64,000 nt of DNA from Longimicrobiales bacterium (GCA_965249725.1 CBDFMQ010000001.1:320001-384000), one strand, 5' to 3'; counted from the first letter of the stretch, positions 8,549-48,403 are shown. The notes: generated by a model from the sequence alone, not told the origin. Made by a program: numbers and translations.

Positions 8549-12745
<4,197 letters not shown>

Positions 12746-12748
12746 ACG

Positions 12749-17047
<4,299 letters not shown>

Positions 17048-17248: not shown

Positions 17249-18430
17249 ATGCGCGCCGATCCAGCGATTGACTTTCTTGCCGATGTGTTGGCGGGTCGCA
17301 CACCCTTGGAGCTTGGACCGGCGGGGGCCGATCGGGATCGTACGGTCGAGCTGCTGGGCTTTCACCGACTGATGGGGCTCTGGTACTCGGAGGTGCGCGC
17401 GGCGGGGACCGACCCGGCGGCGGGCCTGGAGCCGGAGCTGGCCGAGAGCCTGAGAGACCAGTACCTGCGGACCGGGTTTCACTCCACTCTGGTCGTCGAG
17501 TCTGCTGAGCGTGCGCGGATGGCCCTTCAGGCTTCCGGGATTCCCTCCATCGCGTTCAAGGGTGTCGCTCTGCTCCAGAACGGGACGTACAAAGAGCCGG
17601 CCCGCCGGAGCCTGGACGACGCGGACCTTCTGGTCCCTGAGGACTCGGCGGGCGCTGCGGTGAAGGCACTTCAGTCCGTGGGCTTCGACCCCTGGGTGGA
17701 ATGGGATGAATCCCGTGTCGGGTGGCTGCCGGCCTTCACCTTTGCGGACACGCGGGCCCCGGAGGGCATGCCGGTCTCTCTCGACCTCCATTGGCGTACG
17801 CCCTACGCGTCGTTTCGAAGCGGATCGGACGTAGACCCACAGGTGTTGTGGGAGGGGGCGGACGTCGAGGCGGGGCTGCCGGCCGAAGAGCCGCACTTCC
17901 TGCTCCTGATCGAGCATTTTCTGAAGCACCTACGGGTGGTGACCCATGCGAGAGCGATCGGGGACATGGTTCGGTCGCTGGACCGAGTTGCCAGGCCCGA
18001 ACTCCTGGTCACCCTCGCGGATCGGCGGGGGAGCCTTCGCGGTCTGCGGGTAATGCTAGCCTTTCTGAGGGACGACCTGGAGGTCCCGGTGCCGGACCCC
18101 ATACTTTCGGGTGTCGGCGTGCCGGGGCGGATGCCGCGCGCCTCCTCCAGGTTCCTGAATCGGGCGCGCCTCTTCGGCACCGAGCCGGCTGTCACGGGCG
18201 GCCGAGTCCGAGGGCTGCGCGCACAGTGGGCGCTCGGCGGATCGCCGTTCTCGATACTGCGCGACGCCTTCGAAGTCGTCCTGCCCCCGAGGTCCTGGCT
18301 GGACCACCGCTATCCGGACGTCGCGGCCGGATGGAGCCGTCGACGTCTGCGTCACTTCAAGGCGGTGGGGGCGTGGCTGATCGGGCAGGGTGTGTCCCCG
18401 CTGTCTCCGAATCAGGAGTTCGAGGAGTGA
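17249..18430 (+). CDS. Nucleotidyltransferase family protein (NTP_transf_5-like)
   Basis: FKGVAL..Y..PARRSLDDADLLV and LDLHW motifs, typical of the uncharacterised nucleotidyltransferases found beside PqqD genes. Confidence 0.85.
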   Translation: MRADPAIDFLADVLAGRTPLELGPAGADRDRTVELLGFHRLMGLWYSEVRAAGTDPAAGLEPELAESLRDQYLRTGFHSTLVVESAERARMALQASGIPSIAFKGVALLQNGTYKEPARRSLDDADLLVPEDSAGAAVKALQSVGFDPWVEWDESRVGWLPAFTFADTRAPEGMPVSLDLHWRTPYASFRSGSDVDPQVLWEGADVEAGLPAEEPHFLLLIEHFLKHLRVVTHARAIGDMVRSLDRVARPELLVTLADRRGSLRGLRVMLAFLRDDLEVPVPDPILSGVGVPGRMPRASSRFLNRARLFGTEPAVTGGRVRGLRAQWALGGSPFSILRDAFEVVLPPRSWLDHRYPDVAAGWSRRRLRHFKAVGAWLIGQGVSPLSPNQEFEE

Positions 18431-19314
18431 GGGTCCGGTTCTCGTTCGAGGGTGCGATGACCGAAGTGCTGGTAGAGGCGACGACGCTCGCTCCCCAGGT
18501 CTCGGCGCTGTTTCCGGGAGGCCGGATCGAGGAGGCCGATGGGACTGAGGCGGAAGAGGGTGCAGCGGAAGGGGGTGTAGCCCCCGGCATGCGTGTCCTG
18601 CCCGAATCGGACGGGTTCGCTCTTCACGTGCAGGACGCGCGAGAGACGTTCGATTCCGTTCCCGACCTGCTGGCGGCGATCGAGTTCGCCGTAGTGAACG
18701 ACCTTCTCGCTCAAGATGTGGGGAGCACCCACCTGCATGCGGCAGGTGCGATGACCGAACGGGGCGCCGTGTTGGTCTCGGGTCCCTCGGGCGCCGGCAA
18801 GTCCAGCATGGCGTTGGCGTGGTCCTTGGCGGGACATCGACTCCTGGGCGACGATGTCGTACGCCTCGATGAGAACGGCTTGTTGGGACCCTTTCCCAAG
18901 CTGCTCAAGGTGGACCCGCTCCTGTTGCCGGAGCATGGGCTCGCCCCGGAGGATACTCCTGCTTGGGATCCCGAGGCCGACGAGGCGTGGTTCGACCCGA
19001 CGACTGCCGGCGGTTGGGCAAACAAGGGGAGTCGCGCGGCCGTCTTGGCCCGGATAGAGTATGGTGACTTGGAGAGGACGCAGATCCGAGAAGAAGAGGC
19101 GGGCGTAGGCCTTCGCATTCTCTTGGATTCGGTGCAGGCGACGGGCTTACGGAGAGAGGAGAGCATGGACCGCTTTATCGCCCTGTTGGAGGGTGTTCGG
19201 GTGTTCGATGTGCGTTACGCGTCGTCCCGAGATGCGGCCCGTGCGATCGCCGAGCTGGCCGAGGAGGCCGGAGAGTCGCCGACTCGGGTGTCGGAGACTC
19301 GGGTCGAGTCGTGA
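18427..19314 (+). CDS. HPr kinase-related P-loop kinase
   Basis: HLHAA..GAVLVSGPSGAGKSS..LLGDD; the GTG start overlaps the upstream stop (GTGA). Confidence 0.85.
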   Translation: MRVRFSFEGAMTEVLVEATTLAPQVSALFPGGRIEEADGTEAEEGAAEGGVAPGMRVLPESDGFALHVQDARETFDSVPDLLAAIEFAVVNDLLAQDVGSTHLHAAGAMTERGAVLVSGPSGAGKSSMALAWSLAGHRLLGDDVVRLDENGLLGPFPKLLKVDPLLLPEHGLAPEDTPAWDPEADEAWFDPTTAGGWANKGSRAAVLARIEYGDLERTQIREEEAGVGLRILLDSVQATGLRREESMDRFIALLEGVRVFDVRYASSRDAARAIAELAEEAGESPTRVSETRVES

Positions 19315-19601
19315 CCGGCTCCGGCATGCCCGCGAACGCGGGCCACCCGAGGGTGAGGGACGACGCGGTCTTTCGGTCTCTCGGAACGGAGTGGGTGGTG
19401 TATGATCCCCGCACGCAGCTGCTGCACGTGCTGAACACCACGGCGGCTCTCGTCTGGTCGTCCTGTGACGGCTCTCGGTCACCCGAGGACATCGCACGTG
19501 AGTTGACCGAGGTCCTGTCCGAGGCTCCTTCCGGGGATCTCGTCCTCGAAGAGGTGCGCGAGACGATCGACGGATTCCGAGGCCAGGGACTGCTCGAGTG
19601 A
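19311..19601 (+). CDS. PqqD-family RiPP recognition element (RRE)
   Basis: 96 aa; EWVVYDP....HVLNTTAALVWSSCDGSRS.EDIA..L...V...I..F...GLLE. Confidence 0.9.
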   Translation: MTGSGMPANAGHPRVRDDAVFRSLGTEWVVYDPRTQLLHVLNTTAALVWSSCDGSRSPEDIARELTEVLSEAPSGDLVLEEVRETIDGFRGQGLLE

Positions 19602-20590
19602 GCACCCCCTATTACGCGAGCCTGCTGAGTTACTCGAACCGCATCGACCTCTTTCGGCGCGCGATCGAGGAGGCCGTGAGACCCGGCGACCGAGTGCTTG
19701 ATGTCGGAACGGGCCTGGGGACGTTCGGCTTCTTCGCGGCGCAGTCGGGGGCCGAGCGTGTGGTGGCCGTCGACTCGAGCCCGGTAGTCCACCTCGCGGA
19801 GACTCTGGCTTCGGCGAACGGGCTGGCTGACCGGATTGAGTTCGTTCGGGGCTCCCTTCCGGGTGCGCCCATCCAGGGGGAGTTCGACGTCATCATCTTC
19901 GAGGACTTCCCGACGCCGTTCCTCGACCACTCCACATTCGGTCTGCTCAAGACTCTGCAGGAGGAACATCTCGCGCCCGGTGGCAGGGTGCTTCCCCGAT
20001 CGGCTCGCATGTGCCTGGCGCCGGTGCAGTCACATTCCGTATGGAACGAGACGTTTCCCTTGGACGCACAAGGGCACGAGCGCTGGGATCTGGATTGGAC
20101 CGGCATCCGGCCCTTCCTGGCCAATACGCCCCGGCAGCTCAGCCTGAGGCCTGAGGACATACAGGGAGAAGTGGTATTTGGACCCTCCTTGCCGCTGCAG
20201 CCGGTGCCCACGGCTCCGGAGCTTCGGGTAGAGGGGAGCTGGGATGGCGGGGAGCCTGGAGTTGTCCACGGGCTGGCACTGTGGTTCGACCTCGAGATAC
20301 ACGCAGGTGGGTGGATCTCCAACGGCCCGCGGCCGGATACGGAGCCCTGGGGGCAGTGGTTCCTGCCCGTCGACCGGCCGCTCGAGGTAGGTGCGGGACA
20401 AACGCTGCAGGCCTCCGTTTGGCGGGAGGCCTTGGAGCACGGGGCCCCCGGGTGGACGGGGTGGGAGTGCCGGGTCGAGGGTGAGGTGAGGAAGGGCCAT
20501 GAGTTCGCGGGGATGGTCGTTGGCGTCCAGGACTTGACGGACCCAGTGACGGACCCAGTGACGGAACGTGGTAGCGGAGACACCCCGTAG
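19598..20590 (+). CDS. SAM-dependent methyltransferase with PRMT-like architecture
   Basis: R...F..AI....PGDRVLDVGTGLG..AAQSGAERVVAVD, followed by a beta-barrel-like C-domain (VHGLALWFDL..ISNGP..WGQWFLP). Confidence 0.8.
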   Translation: MSTPYYASLLSYSNRIDLFRRAIEEAVRPGDRVLDVGTGLGTFGFFAAQSGAERVVAVDSSPVVHLAETLASANGLADRIEFVRGSLPGAPIQGEFDVIIFEDFPTPFLDHSTFGLLKTLQEEHLAPGGRVLPRSARMCLAPVQSHSVWNETFPLDAQGHERWDLDWTGIRPFLANTPRQLSLRPEDIQGEVVFGPSLPLQPVPTAPELRVEGSWDGGEPGVVHGLALWFDLEIHAGGWISNGPRPDTEPWGQWFLPVDRPLEVGAGQTLQASVWREALEHGAPGWTGWECRVEGEVRKGHEFAGMVVGVQDLTDPVTDPVTERGSGDTP

Positions 20591-20624
20591 CTCCGCGGAC
20601 CGTCCTTTGGCGATGCCCCCAAGG

Positions 20625-20654
20625 TTGACATCCACTCCAGAGTCGGCCGACCTT
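20625..20654 (+). promoter_or_regulatory. Possible promoter for the peptide gene
   Basis: Perfect -35 TTGACA; only a weak -10 (GACCTT at 18 nt spacing). Confidence 0.35.
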
Positions 20655-20723
20655 TGAGAATGGCGCCTGTCCCTAGAAGAGGGGGGCGCCAAACAGTTCT
20701 TGATCCCGTGGGGGAGAGAGTCA

Positions 20724-20936
20724 TTGGACGACCGACGTAGGTTCCTACTCAAGGTGGCGGCGGGTGTCACGTATGCCACGCCGGTGATCCGCACGATGGC
20801 CGCCCCACCCGCGCTCACGGCCCAGGTCACCGGAAAGATGATGATGGGCATGGGCATGGGCATGCTTATCATCGCGCCGCCGCCACCCTCTCCTACGACG
20901 AGTACTGCCCCCTGGGCGAAGAGGCCCCCGGGTTAG
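20724..20936 (+). CDS. Putative RiPP precursor peptide (~70 aa)
   Basis: TTG start after GGGGAGAGAG (alternative start 20700); MDDRRRFLLKVAAGVTYATPVIRTMAAPPALTA-QVTGKMMMGMGMGMLIIAPPPPSPTTSTAPWAKRPPG; co-oriented downstream of the RRE gene. Confidence 0.7.
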   Translation: MDDRRRFLLKVAAGVTYATPVIRTMAAPPALTAQVTGKMMMGMGMGMLIIAPPPPSPTTSTAPWAKRPPG

Positions 20937-21204: not shown

Positions 21205-21576
21205 ATGCCTACGATCAACCAACTCGTTCGCAAGGGACGTCGCGAACTTCAGAAGAAGAACAAGTCCCCTGCGTTGCAGAAGAATCCTCAGAAGAGGGGC
21301 GTTTGCACACGTGTATACACCACCACACCCAAGAAGCCGAATTCCGCGCTGCGGAAGGTGGCCAGGGTGCGGCTCACGAACGGGTACGAAGTCACGTCGT
21401 ACATCGGTGGAGAGGGACACAACCTCCAGGAGCACTCGATCGTGCTCATCCGAGGGGGCCGGGTGAAGGACCTGCCCGGCGTGCGGTACCACGTCGTCCG
21501 GGGAACCCTGGACGCATCAGGTGTCAGCGATCGGCGACAGGGTCGGTCGAAGTACGGCGCCAAGAGACCTAAGTAG
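21205..21576 (+). CDS. rpsL: 30S ribosomal protein S12
   Basis: [31 protein letters not shown]. Confidence 0.99.
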
Positions 21577-46474: not shown

Positions 46475-48403
46475 ATGTGCGGCATAGGGGGCATCGTCTC
46501 GAGGGCCGACAGGCCCCTCTTCGATGGATCCGAGGCGGTCTCACGGAACATGGCTGTCAGAATGCGGCGCCGGGGCCCGGACCGGCAGGCTGCGTGGGCC
46601 GCACCGTCCTCCCGGTGTGTACTGGGTCATGCCCGGCTTCGGGTGATCGACCTGGAGACCGGTGACCAGCCGATGCGGAACGAGGACGCGTCGGTAGTCG
46701 TCCTGCTCAACGGCGAGATCTACAACTACCGGGAGCTTCGCGAGCAGCTCCGGGGTCGGGGGCACCACTTCCGCACGATGAGCGATACGGAGGTCGTCGT
46801 GCACGGGTACCGGGAGTGGGGGCTCGAAGTGGCGAGCCACCTGGACGGGATGTTCGCGTTCGCGGTGTGGGACGAGCGTGAGCAACGTCTCCTTCTGGGT
46901 CGAGACCGCGTCGGTAAGAAGCCCCTGTTCGTATACCAGGACGAGGGGATCCTGGCGTTTTCCTCGGAGATGAAGGGCCTGCTGGAGATCCCGGGAGTGG
47001 ATCTCGGCCTGAACACGTCTGCCCTGCCCCTGTATCTGACCTACGGGTATGTGCCGAGCCCGGGCACCTTCTACGAGAAGATCGAGAAGCTGCCACCGGC
47101 GTCCTGTCTGGTGATGGAGAACGGTTCTTCCCGAATCTGGTCGTATTGGGATGTCACGTTCGAGCGCAGGGCCGTGCCCTATGACGAGGCCAAGGTCGAG
47201 GTCCGGAGGCTGGTAGAGGCGGGCGTGGAACGGCGCCTGGAATCCGACGTGCCCTTGGGTGCGTTTCTATCCGGAGGCGTCGACTCGACGGTGGTGGTGG
47301 CCGTCATGGCCCGCCTCTTGGACGAGCCGGTACGGACCTTCTCCATCGGCTTCGAAGGGGCTCCCGCGTATGACGAAACGCGGTTCGCTCAGATGGCCGC
47401 GGAGCGTCTCGGCACCGTTCACACTGAGTTCAAAGTCGGCCCCCAATCCGTCGATCTCTTGGATCGTCTCGTCGATGCCTACGACGAGCCCTTCGCGGAC
47501 TCGTCCGCCATTCCTACGTACCTCGTGTCGGCGCTGGCGCGAGACCACGTCACCGTGGCGCTGACCGGTGACGGTGGCGATGAGCTGTTTTGCGGCTACA
47601 AGCGGTTTCGGGCGATGGAGCTCGCTGCCGCGATTCCCGGCTGGTTTGCGGCCGGTGCGGACTCGACGCTGAGGCGTTTTGGCGATCGCAGTGACGTGAG
47701 AAGCGTTCGAGGGCAGATGACCCGGTTCTTCGAGGCCGCCCGAGCACCCGAGGATCGACGTTGGCTGAGGTGGGTCGGCCTCTTCACCGAAGATCTCGAC
47801 AACGTGCTCAGACCTGAACTACGGAGCCGGATTGGCGAGATGGATCTGGCGGTGAGCATTCGCGATCCCATGGCGGAGCTGGCGGGGTCGAGCGTTCTTG
47901 CCCGGGCGCTCTCTGCGAACTTCCGGACGTACCTACTGGACGACCTGCTCGTGAAGGCGGACCGAAGCAGTATGGCCCACGGTCTCGAGTTACGATCCCC
48001 GTTCCTCGACACGGCCCTGATCGAGTACGCGAGCCGGCTCCCCGATGGACATCTTCGGAGGGGTCGCACGCTGAAGCGCGTGCTCAAGGATGCGTTTGCA
48101 GATGTGCTGCCGCACGAGATCCGCCGTCGCGGGAAGATGGGGTTCGGTGTGCCCGTTCCGGACTGGCTTCGAGGGCCCTGGCGCCCCATGGTGGAGGAGC
48201 GAATCCTGTCCGAAGATGCTCGAATCTGGGAGTGGCTCGAACGCGATTACGTTGTGAAGAGAGCGCATCTCCACTTTGACCGACGGGAGGACTTCAGTCA
48301 TCAACTCTGGTCATTGCTCACGCTCGAGACCTGGCTTCAGCAGATGAACGGCCATCCAGGCAGCGTGGAGTCGGAGTCGGACGCCATCCAGGTGAGGGGC
48401 TGA
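46475..48403 (+). CDS. asnB: Asparagine synthase-type glutamine amidotransferase (glycan-associated)
   Basis: MCGI Ntn start, NGEIYNY, FLSGGVDS, LTGDGGDELF, RSPFLD. Confidence 0.9.
   Translation: MCGIGGIVSRADRPLFDGSEAVSRNMAVRMRRRGPDRQAAWAAPSSRCVLGHARLRVIDLETGDQPMRNEDASVVVLLNGEIYNYRELREQLRGRGHHFRTMSDTEVVVHGYREWGLEVASHLDGMFAFAVWDEREQRLLLGRDRVGKKPLFVYQDEGILAFSSEMKGLLEIPGVDLGLNTSALPLYLTYGYVPSPGTFYEKIEKLPPASCLVMENGSSRIWSYWDVTFERRAVPYDEAKVEVRRLVEAGVERRLESDVPLGAFLSGGVDSTVVVAVMARLLDEPVRTFSIGFEGAPAYDETRFAQMAAERLGTVHTEFKVGPQSVDLLDRLVDAYDEPFADSSAIPTYLVSALARDHVTVALTGDGGDELFCGYKRFRAMELAAAIPGWFAAGADSTLRRFGDRSDVRSVRGQMTRFFEAARAPEDRRWLRWVGLFTEDLDNVLRPELRSRIGEMDLAVSIRDPMAELAGSSVLARALSANFRTYLLDDLLVKADRSSMAHGLELRSPFLDTALIEYASRLPDGHLRRGRTLKRVLKDAFADVLPHEIRRRGKMGFGVPVPDWLRGPWRPMVEERILSEDARIWEWLERDYVVKRAHLHFDRREDFSHQLWSLLTLETWLQQMNGHPGSVESESDAIQVRG

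Follow-up and report, generated by a model that had tools for sequence, protein, structure and literature searches.

A 64,000 nt window of a Longimicrobiales bacterium (the whole stretch CBDFMQ010000001.1:320001-384000 of GCA_965249725.1) contained a 3.7 kb system of five genes between two open reading frames (ORFs) that we take to be rpoC and rpsL. It consists of a nucleotidyltransferase (NTase), an HprK-like kinase, a recognition element (RRE) for ribosomally synthesised peptides with post-translational modifications (RiPPs), a methyltransferase with the fold of protein arginine methyltransferases (PRMTs) and a precursor peptide. With a probability of about 0.6, the system produces a tailored linear peptide that is exported by twin-arginine translocation (Tat) and whose leader holds both an RRE-type and a twin-arginine motif. 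The genes and their folds, the intact catalytic motifs, the co-occurrence of the genes and the motifs of leader and core are established.

The short ORF that the sequence-only reading had placed after the enzyme genes proved real and conserved. Its start was moved from 20700 to the TTG codon at 20724, the most likely start judged from a purine-rich ribosome-binding site just 5′ of it and from homologues that begin 2-4 residues ahead of the arginine pair. The precursor (20724..20936, plus strand) thus has 70 aa, with a 33 aa leader and a predicted 37 aa core. Leader differences from the copy in genome G002 were concentrated in codon position 3 (9/2/17 at codon positions 1/2/3), which indicates coding constraint on the ORF. 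A profile of eight copies retrieved 130 matches at E ≤ 0.001 from 1.84 billion representatives (50% identity clustering). One homologue belonged to a Gemmatimonadota bacterium, and the peptide is a member of a conserved Gemmatimonadota family. Three long matches were set aside: P0040, which looks like a read-through of methyltransferase and peptide, P0120, an unrelated repeat protein, and P0135. A further 11 rows, being truncated, frameshifted or nearly duplicate, were removed and the window peptide was added, which gave an alignment of 117 peptides. Motif counts refer to 116 anchored peptides, whose kinship overstates their independence. No family in Pfam or NCBIfam covered the peptide, and the ESM Atlas held no match above 0.83. 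No longer protein bearing this leader was found among lengths of 271-2000 residues, a negative result of little weight.

Three signals were arranged along the leader. The twin-arginine motif RRRFL (residues 4-8, 20733..20747) was conserved with R in 100%, R/K in 100%, F in 88% and L in 86% of the family, and the spacing from RR to Tyr was 13 residues in 116/116 peptides. The RRE-type motif YxxPxI (Tyr17, Pro20 and Ile22; 20772..20789) had Y in 91%, P in 100% and I/V in 94%. A predicted site resembling that of signal peptidase I followed (Pro28 at −6, Leu31 at −3, Ala33 at −1 and Gln34 at +1; 20805..20825), with P in 92% at −6, A/G in 93% at −1 and Q in 72% at +1. The −3/−1 rule as applied was satisfied by 111/116 peptides. 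Placed by this pattern alone, cleavage would leave Tyr at −17, Pro at −14, Ile at −12 and Thr at +3 in the window peptide. The combination AxA-Gln was not used as support for cleavage, with only a mild enrichment at N-termini genome-wide (5.4% vs 3.5%). The Tat model TIGR01409 matched 12/117 family members at E ≤ 0.05. The sequence-only reading had missed this twin-arginine and signal-peptidase leader, together with a second genomic peptide copy and the altered PRMT pocket described below; its proposal of leader guidance is in line with the YxxPxI motif, for which RRE binding is predicted.

In the core, Ser or Thr occupied +3 or +4 in 81/116 peptides (32.6 in shuffles), and [ST]-x-Lys was present in 54/116 cores (14.8 in local shuffles). 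No excess was seen for [ST]-x-Met, with 23 cases against 23.7 expected from local composition. A Ser or Thr lay within the first ten core residues of 115/116 peptides, and this hydroxyl residue was the only core feature common to nearly all of them. In the window peptide, Thr36-Gly-Lys38 (20829..20837) provides the predicted phospho-acceptor at +3 and a candidate methyl acceptor at +5. A Met/Gly-rich repeat of strain-variable length follows (20838..20864); in public contigs from four runs it changed in units of 6 nt, with indels of 6 and 12 nt. A Met/His cluster was found in 61/116 cores, compared with 19.9 after shuffling. Towards the C-terminus, [APGT]PW was present in 83/116 and PP[PG] in 77/116 cores, corresponding to the conserved APW..PPG motif at 20907..20933. 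No Arg was present in 31/116 cores, and the only invariant Arg residues of the family were those of the leader.

Direct ORF reading confirmed that four co-oriented, stop-free plus-strand genes precede the peptide (17249-18430, 18427-19314, 19311-19601 and 19598-20590). They encode 393, 295, 96 and 330 aa, and at each of their three junctions (18427, 19311 and 19598) the stop and start codons overlap in a GTGA. Hidden Markov model searches and, for the methyltransferase, structural modelling agreed with the identities first proposed for them, the kinase lying under its Pfam cut-off. Public contigs from four runs in four studies covered the cassette with zero frameshifts.

The kinase (295 aa, 18427..19314) starts at a GTG that overlaps the NTase stop codon, a start supported by same-genus homologues, which keep VRVRFSFEG and have no downstream ATG. 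It reached 24.5 bits with Hpr_kinase_C (cut-off 33.3) and 35.8 bits with TIGR04352 (cut-off 200). Its best match among solved structures was the HPr kinase 1ko7 (E 6.6e-9). The His, the Walker A motif GxxGxGKS and the Asp-Asp pair were invariant over 25 homologues, with spacing identical to H148-G163-G166-G168-K169-S170-D186-D187 of BsfK, residues shown to matter in that enzyme (PMC10368454). By sequence, the kinase retains every BsfK catalytic residue.

The RRE is a stand-alone PqqD-fold protein of 96 aa (19311..19601, with ATG 19326 as alternative start) and the sole PqqD match in the genome. It scored 41.9 bits with PqqD (PF05402, cut-off 23.4) and 24.8 bits with TIGR04353 (cut-off 35). Its profile had LppB (9x8z) as best solved-structure match (E 3.8e-4), and the Asn of the LN motif was retained. 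In a sister cassette, the RRE and a related leader form one protein (HH probability 45%, E 2e-4). When this natural fusion was folded with eight sequences, the leader had a pLDDT of about 37-61.

The NTase (17249..18430), an accessory gene, matched NTP_transf_5 (PF14907) with 74.7 bits (cut-off 31.2) and carries conserved Lys-Gly and Asp-x-Asp motifs. Over 19 homologues, G105, D126, G145 and H223 were invariant, and K104, D124, H181 and D239 were conserved to at least 90%. Its end includes a conserved SPLSP (18403-18420) similar to an LSP in the cores of a subtype that has HTTM genes and no NTase; this likeness is possibly due to chance.

The methyltransferase (19598..20590) is S-adenosylmethionine (SAM)-dependent with a rebuilt substrate pocket. 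Pfam returned Methyltransf_25/31 plus weak matches to PRMT_C and also to PrmA. The profile aligned to PRMT6 across both domains (E 1.7e-60), and the structural model (pLDDT 94.9) superposed on CARM1 with Z 28.9 and a root mean square deviation of 3.5 over 299 aligned residues. The top 15 structural chains were all PRMTs, followed by a non-PRMT fold at Z 14.2. Judged from the model, the enzyme has a PRMT fold. Pocket residues were scored in the 83 closest of 105 aligned homologues. The SAM motif, the helix Arg and the first loop Glu are retained, whereas Asp103 and a GHEF tail are new; E102, the first loop Glu, and D103 were invariant (83/83). At what we take to be the double-E loop, the second position was variable and the Glu lost, with His in the window enzyme. 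The His of the presumed THW loop was also lost, with Pro in 59/83, as were the helix Asp of PRMTs and the N-terminal helix. Because half of the arginine-binding pocket is lost, the enzyme likely acts on an acceptor other than arginine. Methylation of core arginine as the general reaction was rejected in view of the altered pocket and the Arg-free cores. The closest named relatives were from Longimicrobiales and Gemmatimonadales bacteria, and a single-protein scan of genome contigs found only two close relatives. Elsewhere, genome G289 held a core of Gly-Arg-Gly repeats next to a different methyltransferase of the PRMT5_C type (L104:7756-8322 and 11693-12781), where a bacterial enzyme that truly methylates arginine may stand beside its substrate.

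The peptide was present in 28/401 genomes of the order and 18/401 of the phylum, both tallies including the unpublished genome G025, which underlies no other statement made here. Fifty peptide loci were read. Kinase, RRE and methyltransferase occurred within 6 kb in 28 of them, and these complete cassettes had the NTase in 21 cases and were without it in seven. Eight loci had an HTTM gene pair beside kinase and RRE (Pfam-confirmed in six), four had a kinase without methyltransferase (two on short contigs) and three, all on short contigs, had only the methyltransferase. Two loci were distant sister types and five were orphan copies, including one in the present genome. The complete arrangement was present in 12/12 genomes of two other families. 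Because the 50 loci had been picked via the peptide, the association was also tested in the opposite direction, starting from the methyltransferase and from the kinase. Usable metagenome loci, defined by at least 200 bits and 700 nt downstream, numbered 31 of 62; 26 of the 31 carried the peptide, and so did 24/24 at 300 bits or more, some of these being one organism in several samples. On this point, a peptide conserved beside the enzymes, the sequence-only reading was supported. The clade kinase was present in 29/401 genomes. Among eight kinase copies outside the profile, three adjoined the peptide, four were cut by contig ends and one (L111) was without it.

Several variants of the cassette were observed. 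In one family, the gap between rpoC and rpsL held the present type in 11 genomes (L018, L019, L090-L093, L097-L099, L117/L027). In six genomes (L120, L123-L125, L129, L130), the same gap held a type in which RRE, twin-arginine leader and Cys-rich core are fused. In the HTTM subtype (L101, L104, L105, L107-L109, L112, L113), the kinase was separated from a Gly-rich peptide by an HTTM gene and its membrane-gene partner; the HTTM gene was SdpB-like, under the cut-off, and the clade methyltransferase was absent. A second cassette in G383 (L111:8308-9906) comprised NTase and kinase together with an RRE joined to a 532 aa protein, with no leader match.

The orphan copy in the present genome is located at C3:1748387-1748587 (L017) and adjoins a GMC oxidoreductase pair. 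It would be modified in trans. An orphan copy in G001 (L110) adjoins a similar oxidoreductase gene. The operon peptide of G001 (L018:7890-8156) has a frameshift just past the predicted cleavage site, attributable either to faulty assembly or to decay of a gene whose orphan copy is still intact. Near the orphan peptide of the present genome, a B12-binding radical SAM-like gene was apparently split by a transposase-bearing insertion (L017:10663-17857, read by eye).

From these features we infer all chemical and export steps of the pathway. The RRE would very probably bind the leader through YxxPxI. The kinase would then probably phosphorylate Thr+3, possibly with a short polyphosphate as in the LPPs discussed below, and methylation of this peptide by the PRMT-fold enzyme is predicted with equal confidence. 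Lys+5, in preference to phosphate, terminus or a leader Arg or Lys, is a tentative choice of methyl acceptor. In an optional step, for which the odds are a little under even, the NTase may add a nucleotide or sugar cap to the phosphate. Nucleotidylation as a core step, as first proposed, did not hold: seven of the 28 complete cassettes are without the gene, and published NTase homologues gave hexose addition or no product (PMC9266682, PMC13381572). Export by Tat and removal of the leader by the housekeeping signal peptidase I appear likely. The bound RRE may mask the export signal until tailoring is complete, and the product would be a linear, extracytoplasmic peptide of 37 residues. The enrichment of the Met/His cluster hints at soft-metal (Cu/Ag) binding, a doubtful role.

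A number of observations weigh against parts of this pathway. Thr alone at +3 was seen in 13/116 peptides, Ser being the usual residue of the family, and LppK rejects Thr at this position (PMC13381572). The leader is charged and its hydrophobic region weak for export (median best hydropathy 1.4 in the family), with Lys/Arg at three positions past RR. Thirteen consecutive uncharged residues were present in just 82/116 peptides, and the window peptide has 12 (Lys10 to Arg23) and no match to a Tat model. The RRE-fused sister carries its RR some 100 residues into the protein. Judged by these sequence features, the Tat step is weakened. Apparent ABC/efflux operons adjoining several relatives (read by eye) would offer an alternative exporter. 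Lys+5 is a best guess that fits this locus, yet [ST]-x-K is limited to the 54 cores, and intact methyltransferases stand beside Lys/Arg-free cores (L165 and the second peptide of L166). In addition, RRE, methyltransferase and peptide occur together at three loci of two sequence types (L204 and L212/L213) where the DNA available shows no kinase, and the related genomes are non-independent samples.

The best surviving alternative, still unlikely, keeps the same pathway and lets the methyltransferase cap the phosphate as a methyl phosphodiester, or methylate a terminus, rather than Lys, with the NTase as an alternative cap. It would account for the hydroxyl residue in 115/116 cores and for intact methyltransferases with Lys/Arg/His-free cores. 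The distant PRMT-fold genes in the lasso-like clusters of genus g26, which have the kinase on one side and the NTase on the other, also suit it, and the conserved D103, N242 and H301, which are new, could make a metal site. The invariant Glu-Asp pair, however, suits a cationic acceptor, the [ST]-x-K excess (54 vs 14.8) is position-specific, and RRE, methyltransferase and peptide were also seen without a nearby kinase.

Less probable is a modified peptide that stays cytoplasmic or is exported otherwise, with RR serving as an enzyme dock or as methyl acceptor in an arginine switch on the leader. The charged, weakly hydrophobic leader and the internal RR of the RRE-fused sister would be expected, as would an arginine-methyltransferase fold in a family whose invariant Arg residues are all in the leader. 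This explanation conflicts with the RRxFL consensus and the −6/−3/−1/+1 signal-peptidase pattern in almost all members, with an operon that has neither peptidase nor exporter gene, and with the loss of two PRMT residues, the second Glu of the loop and the His of THW.

For the peptide to serve, once secreted, as carrier or anchor of a phospho-linked envelope glycan instead of being a free natural product is improbable. PsmN-dependent addition of hexose to phospho-Ser (PMC9266682) and the position of LPP clusters in capsule loci (PMC13381572) suggest such a role. A polysaccharide locus starts about 23 kb downstream in the window, and the relative L097 has an adjacent GT2 glycosyltransferase gene. 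The NTase is absent from 7/28 cassettes, however, and most cassettes have no directly adjacent glycosyltransferase (read by eye). Modification of ribosomal or transcription proteins of the rpoC-rpsL region, with the small ORF as bystander, is very improbable: it draws on the position here and in ten other genomes and on the weak PrmA matches, whereas most cassettes are located elsewhere with the peptide still present, every complete cassette has an RRE, and six other genomes fill the same gap with a different kinase/RRE cassette.

For the preferred reading, a tailored and Tat-exported linear peptide, the rest of the genome (96% complete) was also considered. The sequence-only reading had noted the absence of a lasso cyclase, B2 protease and YcaO from the cluster, and none was found in this 96%-complete genome either; Glu_cyclase_2 had no match in it. 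The sole Transglut_core3 hit was rejected as a B2 protease, being a 508 aa membrane-anchored protein beside an ABC system. Two Asn_synthase genes at 46475 and 59967 were rejected as lasso cyclases. Both pass the asparagine synthase cut-off, score 238 and 251 against 525 with the lasso cyclase model, and are the glutamine amidotransferases of the polysaccharide biosynthesis locus at 43598-63913, 3′ of the ribosomal protein operons. The sole SPASM protein was heme d1/AhbD-like, resembling heme biosynthesis enzymes. In relatives, no class-defining genes were seen by eye in the gene calls, with Pfam searches on 40 chosen proteins. Between rpoC and rpsL, no peptidase and no MsbA-like ABC transporter gene was present; the genome encodes TatC and a pair of S26 signal peptidases outside the operon, the S26 genes on another contig. 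The flanking ORFs, read directly on the plus strand at 12749..17047 (rpoC) and 21205..21576 (rpsL), lie outside the system. A scan for consensus promoters and terminators gave nothing above chance, and among the public runs listed no RNA run carried the cassette.

The locus offers a defined substrate for two families without one, the bacterial PRMT-fold methyltransferases and the NTP_transf_5 proteins. Action of a PRMT fold on non-arginine, if true, bears on the origin of the eukaryotic PRMT pocket. The system would also carry the LPP logic of 2026 from Bacillota into a diderm phylum with another export route, and, being compact enough to be reconstructed in E. coli, it is a test case for the gating of Tat export by an RRE.

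The proposal of an undescribed RiPP class was overstated, as the combination of RRE, HprK kinase and NTP transferase without a cyclase is published for the LPPs of Bacillota (lppA-K-B-S-D-N; Popov et al. 2026, PMC13381572), in which Ser+3 is polyphosphorylated. The present cluster likewise combines a separate RRE, a kinase resembling HprK and an uncharacterised NTP transferase and has no macrolactam cyclase. It further resembles the LPPs in the YxxP of the leader (LppA register Tyr−16/Pro−13/Ser+3), the hydroxyl at +3, the signal-peptidase-type cleavage predicted here and an RRE closest to LppB. Unlike LPP clusters, the operon has no SipW-like SpI leader peptidase and no MsbA-like ABC transporter, and its leader lies outside the LPP consensus YxxPxVLxHQxIxFETxxS, agreeing only in YxxP and the +3 hydroxyl. 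The twin-arginine leader, the PRMT-fold methyltransferase as core gene, Thr+3 and the phylum also differ. Methyltransf_25 was present in 7/126 LPP neighbourhoods, and a term search of the main LPP text found no mention of a methyltransferase, Tat or Gemmatimonad (PMC13381572). The operon would work like the LPP pathway and falls outside LPP membership on peptidase, exporter and leader consensus.

Phosphorylated lasso peptides (Bsf, paeninodin and pseudomycoidin with PsmK/PsmN) share the RRE-assisted HprK-type kinase and the NTase gene. In pseudomycoidin, hexose addition depends on PsmN (PMC9266682), and the BsfA kinase of Bradymonas is RRE-dependent and can use Thr at +3 (PMC10368454). The Tyr−17/Pro−14/−12 register (Leu at −12 in BsfA), the +3 acceptor and the kinase motif spacing are those of the Bsf lasso system, and the [YW]xxPx[LVI] RRE motif of lasso peptides is present. 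In contrast to lasso peptides, there is no cyclase, B2 protease, ABC exporter or C-terminal Ser, and a Tat-type leader and a methyltransferase are added. The lasso Thr−2 is found in the window peptide, yet in 5/116 of the family; an Asp or Glu at core positions 7-9 is absent here and present in 15/116. Lasso-like clusters of g26 (L021-L024) comprised a cyclase-like gene, a YxxPxL precursor, kinase, PRMT-fold enzyme and NTase; some added an ABC gene and an RRE, and no B2 protease was seen there by eye. Because distant PRMT-fold genes accompany kinase and NTase in these clusters, lasso systems probably have the tailoring trio in common with this one.

HPr-rel-A presumably has the same layout of kinase, PqqD protein and nucleotidyltransferase. 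Its models TIGR04352 and TIGR04353 were the best NCBIfam matches of kinase and RRE, at 35.8 against a cut-off of 200 and 24.8 against 35 bits, and the methyltransferase and identified precursor are extra here. The methyltransferase resembles CARM1, PRMT1 and PRMT6 in combining a Rossmann domain and beta-barrel over about 300 residues, and differs from PRMTs in the missing second loop Glu, THW His, helix Asp and N-terminal helix. The N-terminal RRxFL and signal peptidase site are those of Tat substrates. In bufferins, RiPPs of the MNIO type, a Sec signal peptide doubles as leader and an RRE-bearing partner is proposed to mask the signal until the peptide has been modified (PMC12452194); the present leader is of the Tat and not the Sec type, the enzymes and chemistry are others, and bufferin cores are Cys-based. 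In the literature covered, which excluded subscription papers and bioRxiv supplements, no RRE or RiPP system with a Tat-type leader or PRMT-fold enzyme was found. The system is unlikely to form a separate RiPP class, with a leader that is both Tat signal and RRE dock, an RRE that acts as Tat proofreading chaperone, a core freed by a housekeeping signal peptidase, and a PRMT-fold enzyme with a rebuilt pocket that methylates a non-arginine acceptor (Lys or phosphate) beside phospho-Ser/Thr. Altogether, the operon is likely an undescribed cousin of the LPPs and phosphorylated lasso peptides, distinguished by a leader of the Tat type and by a PRMT fold put to another use.

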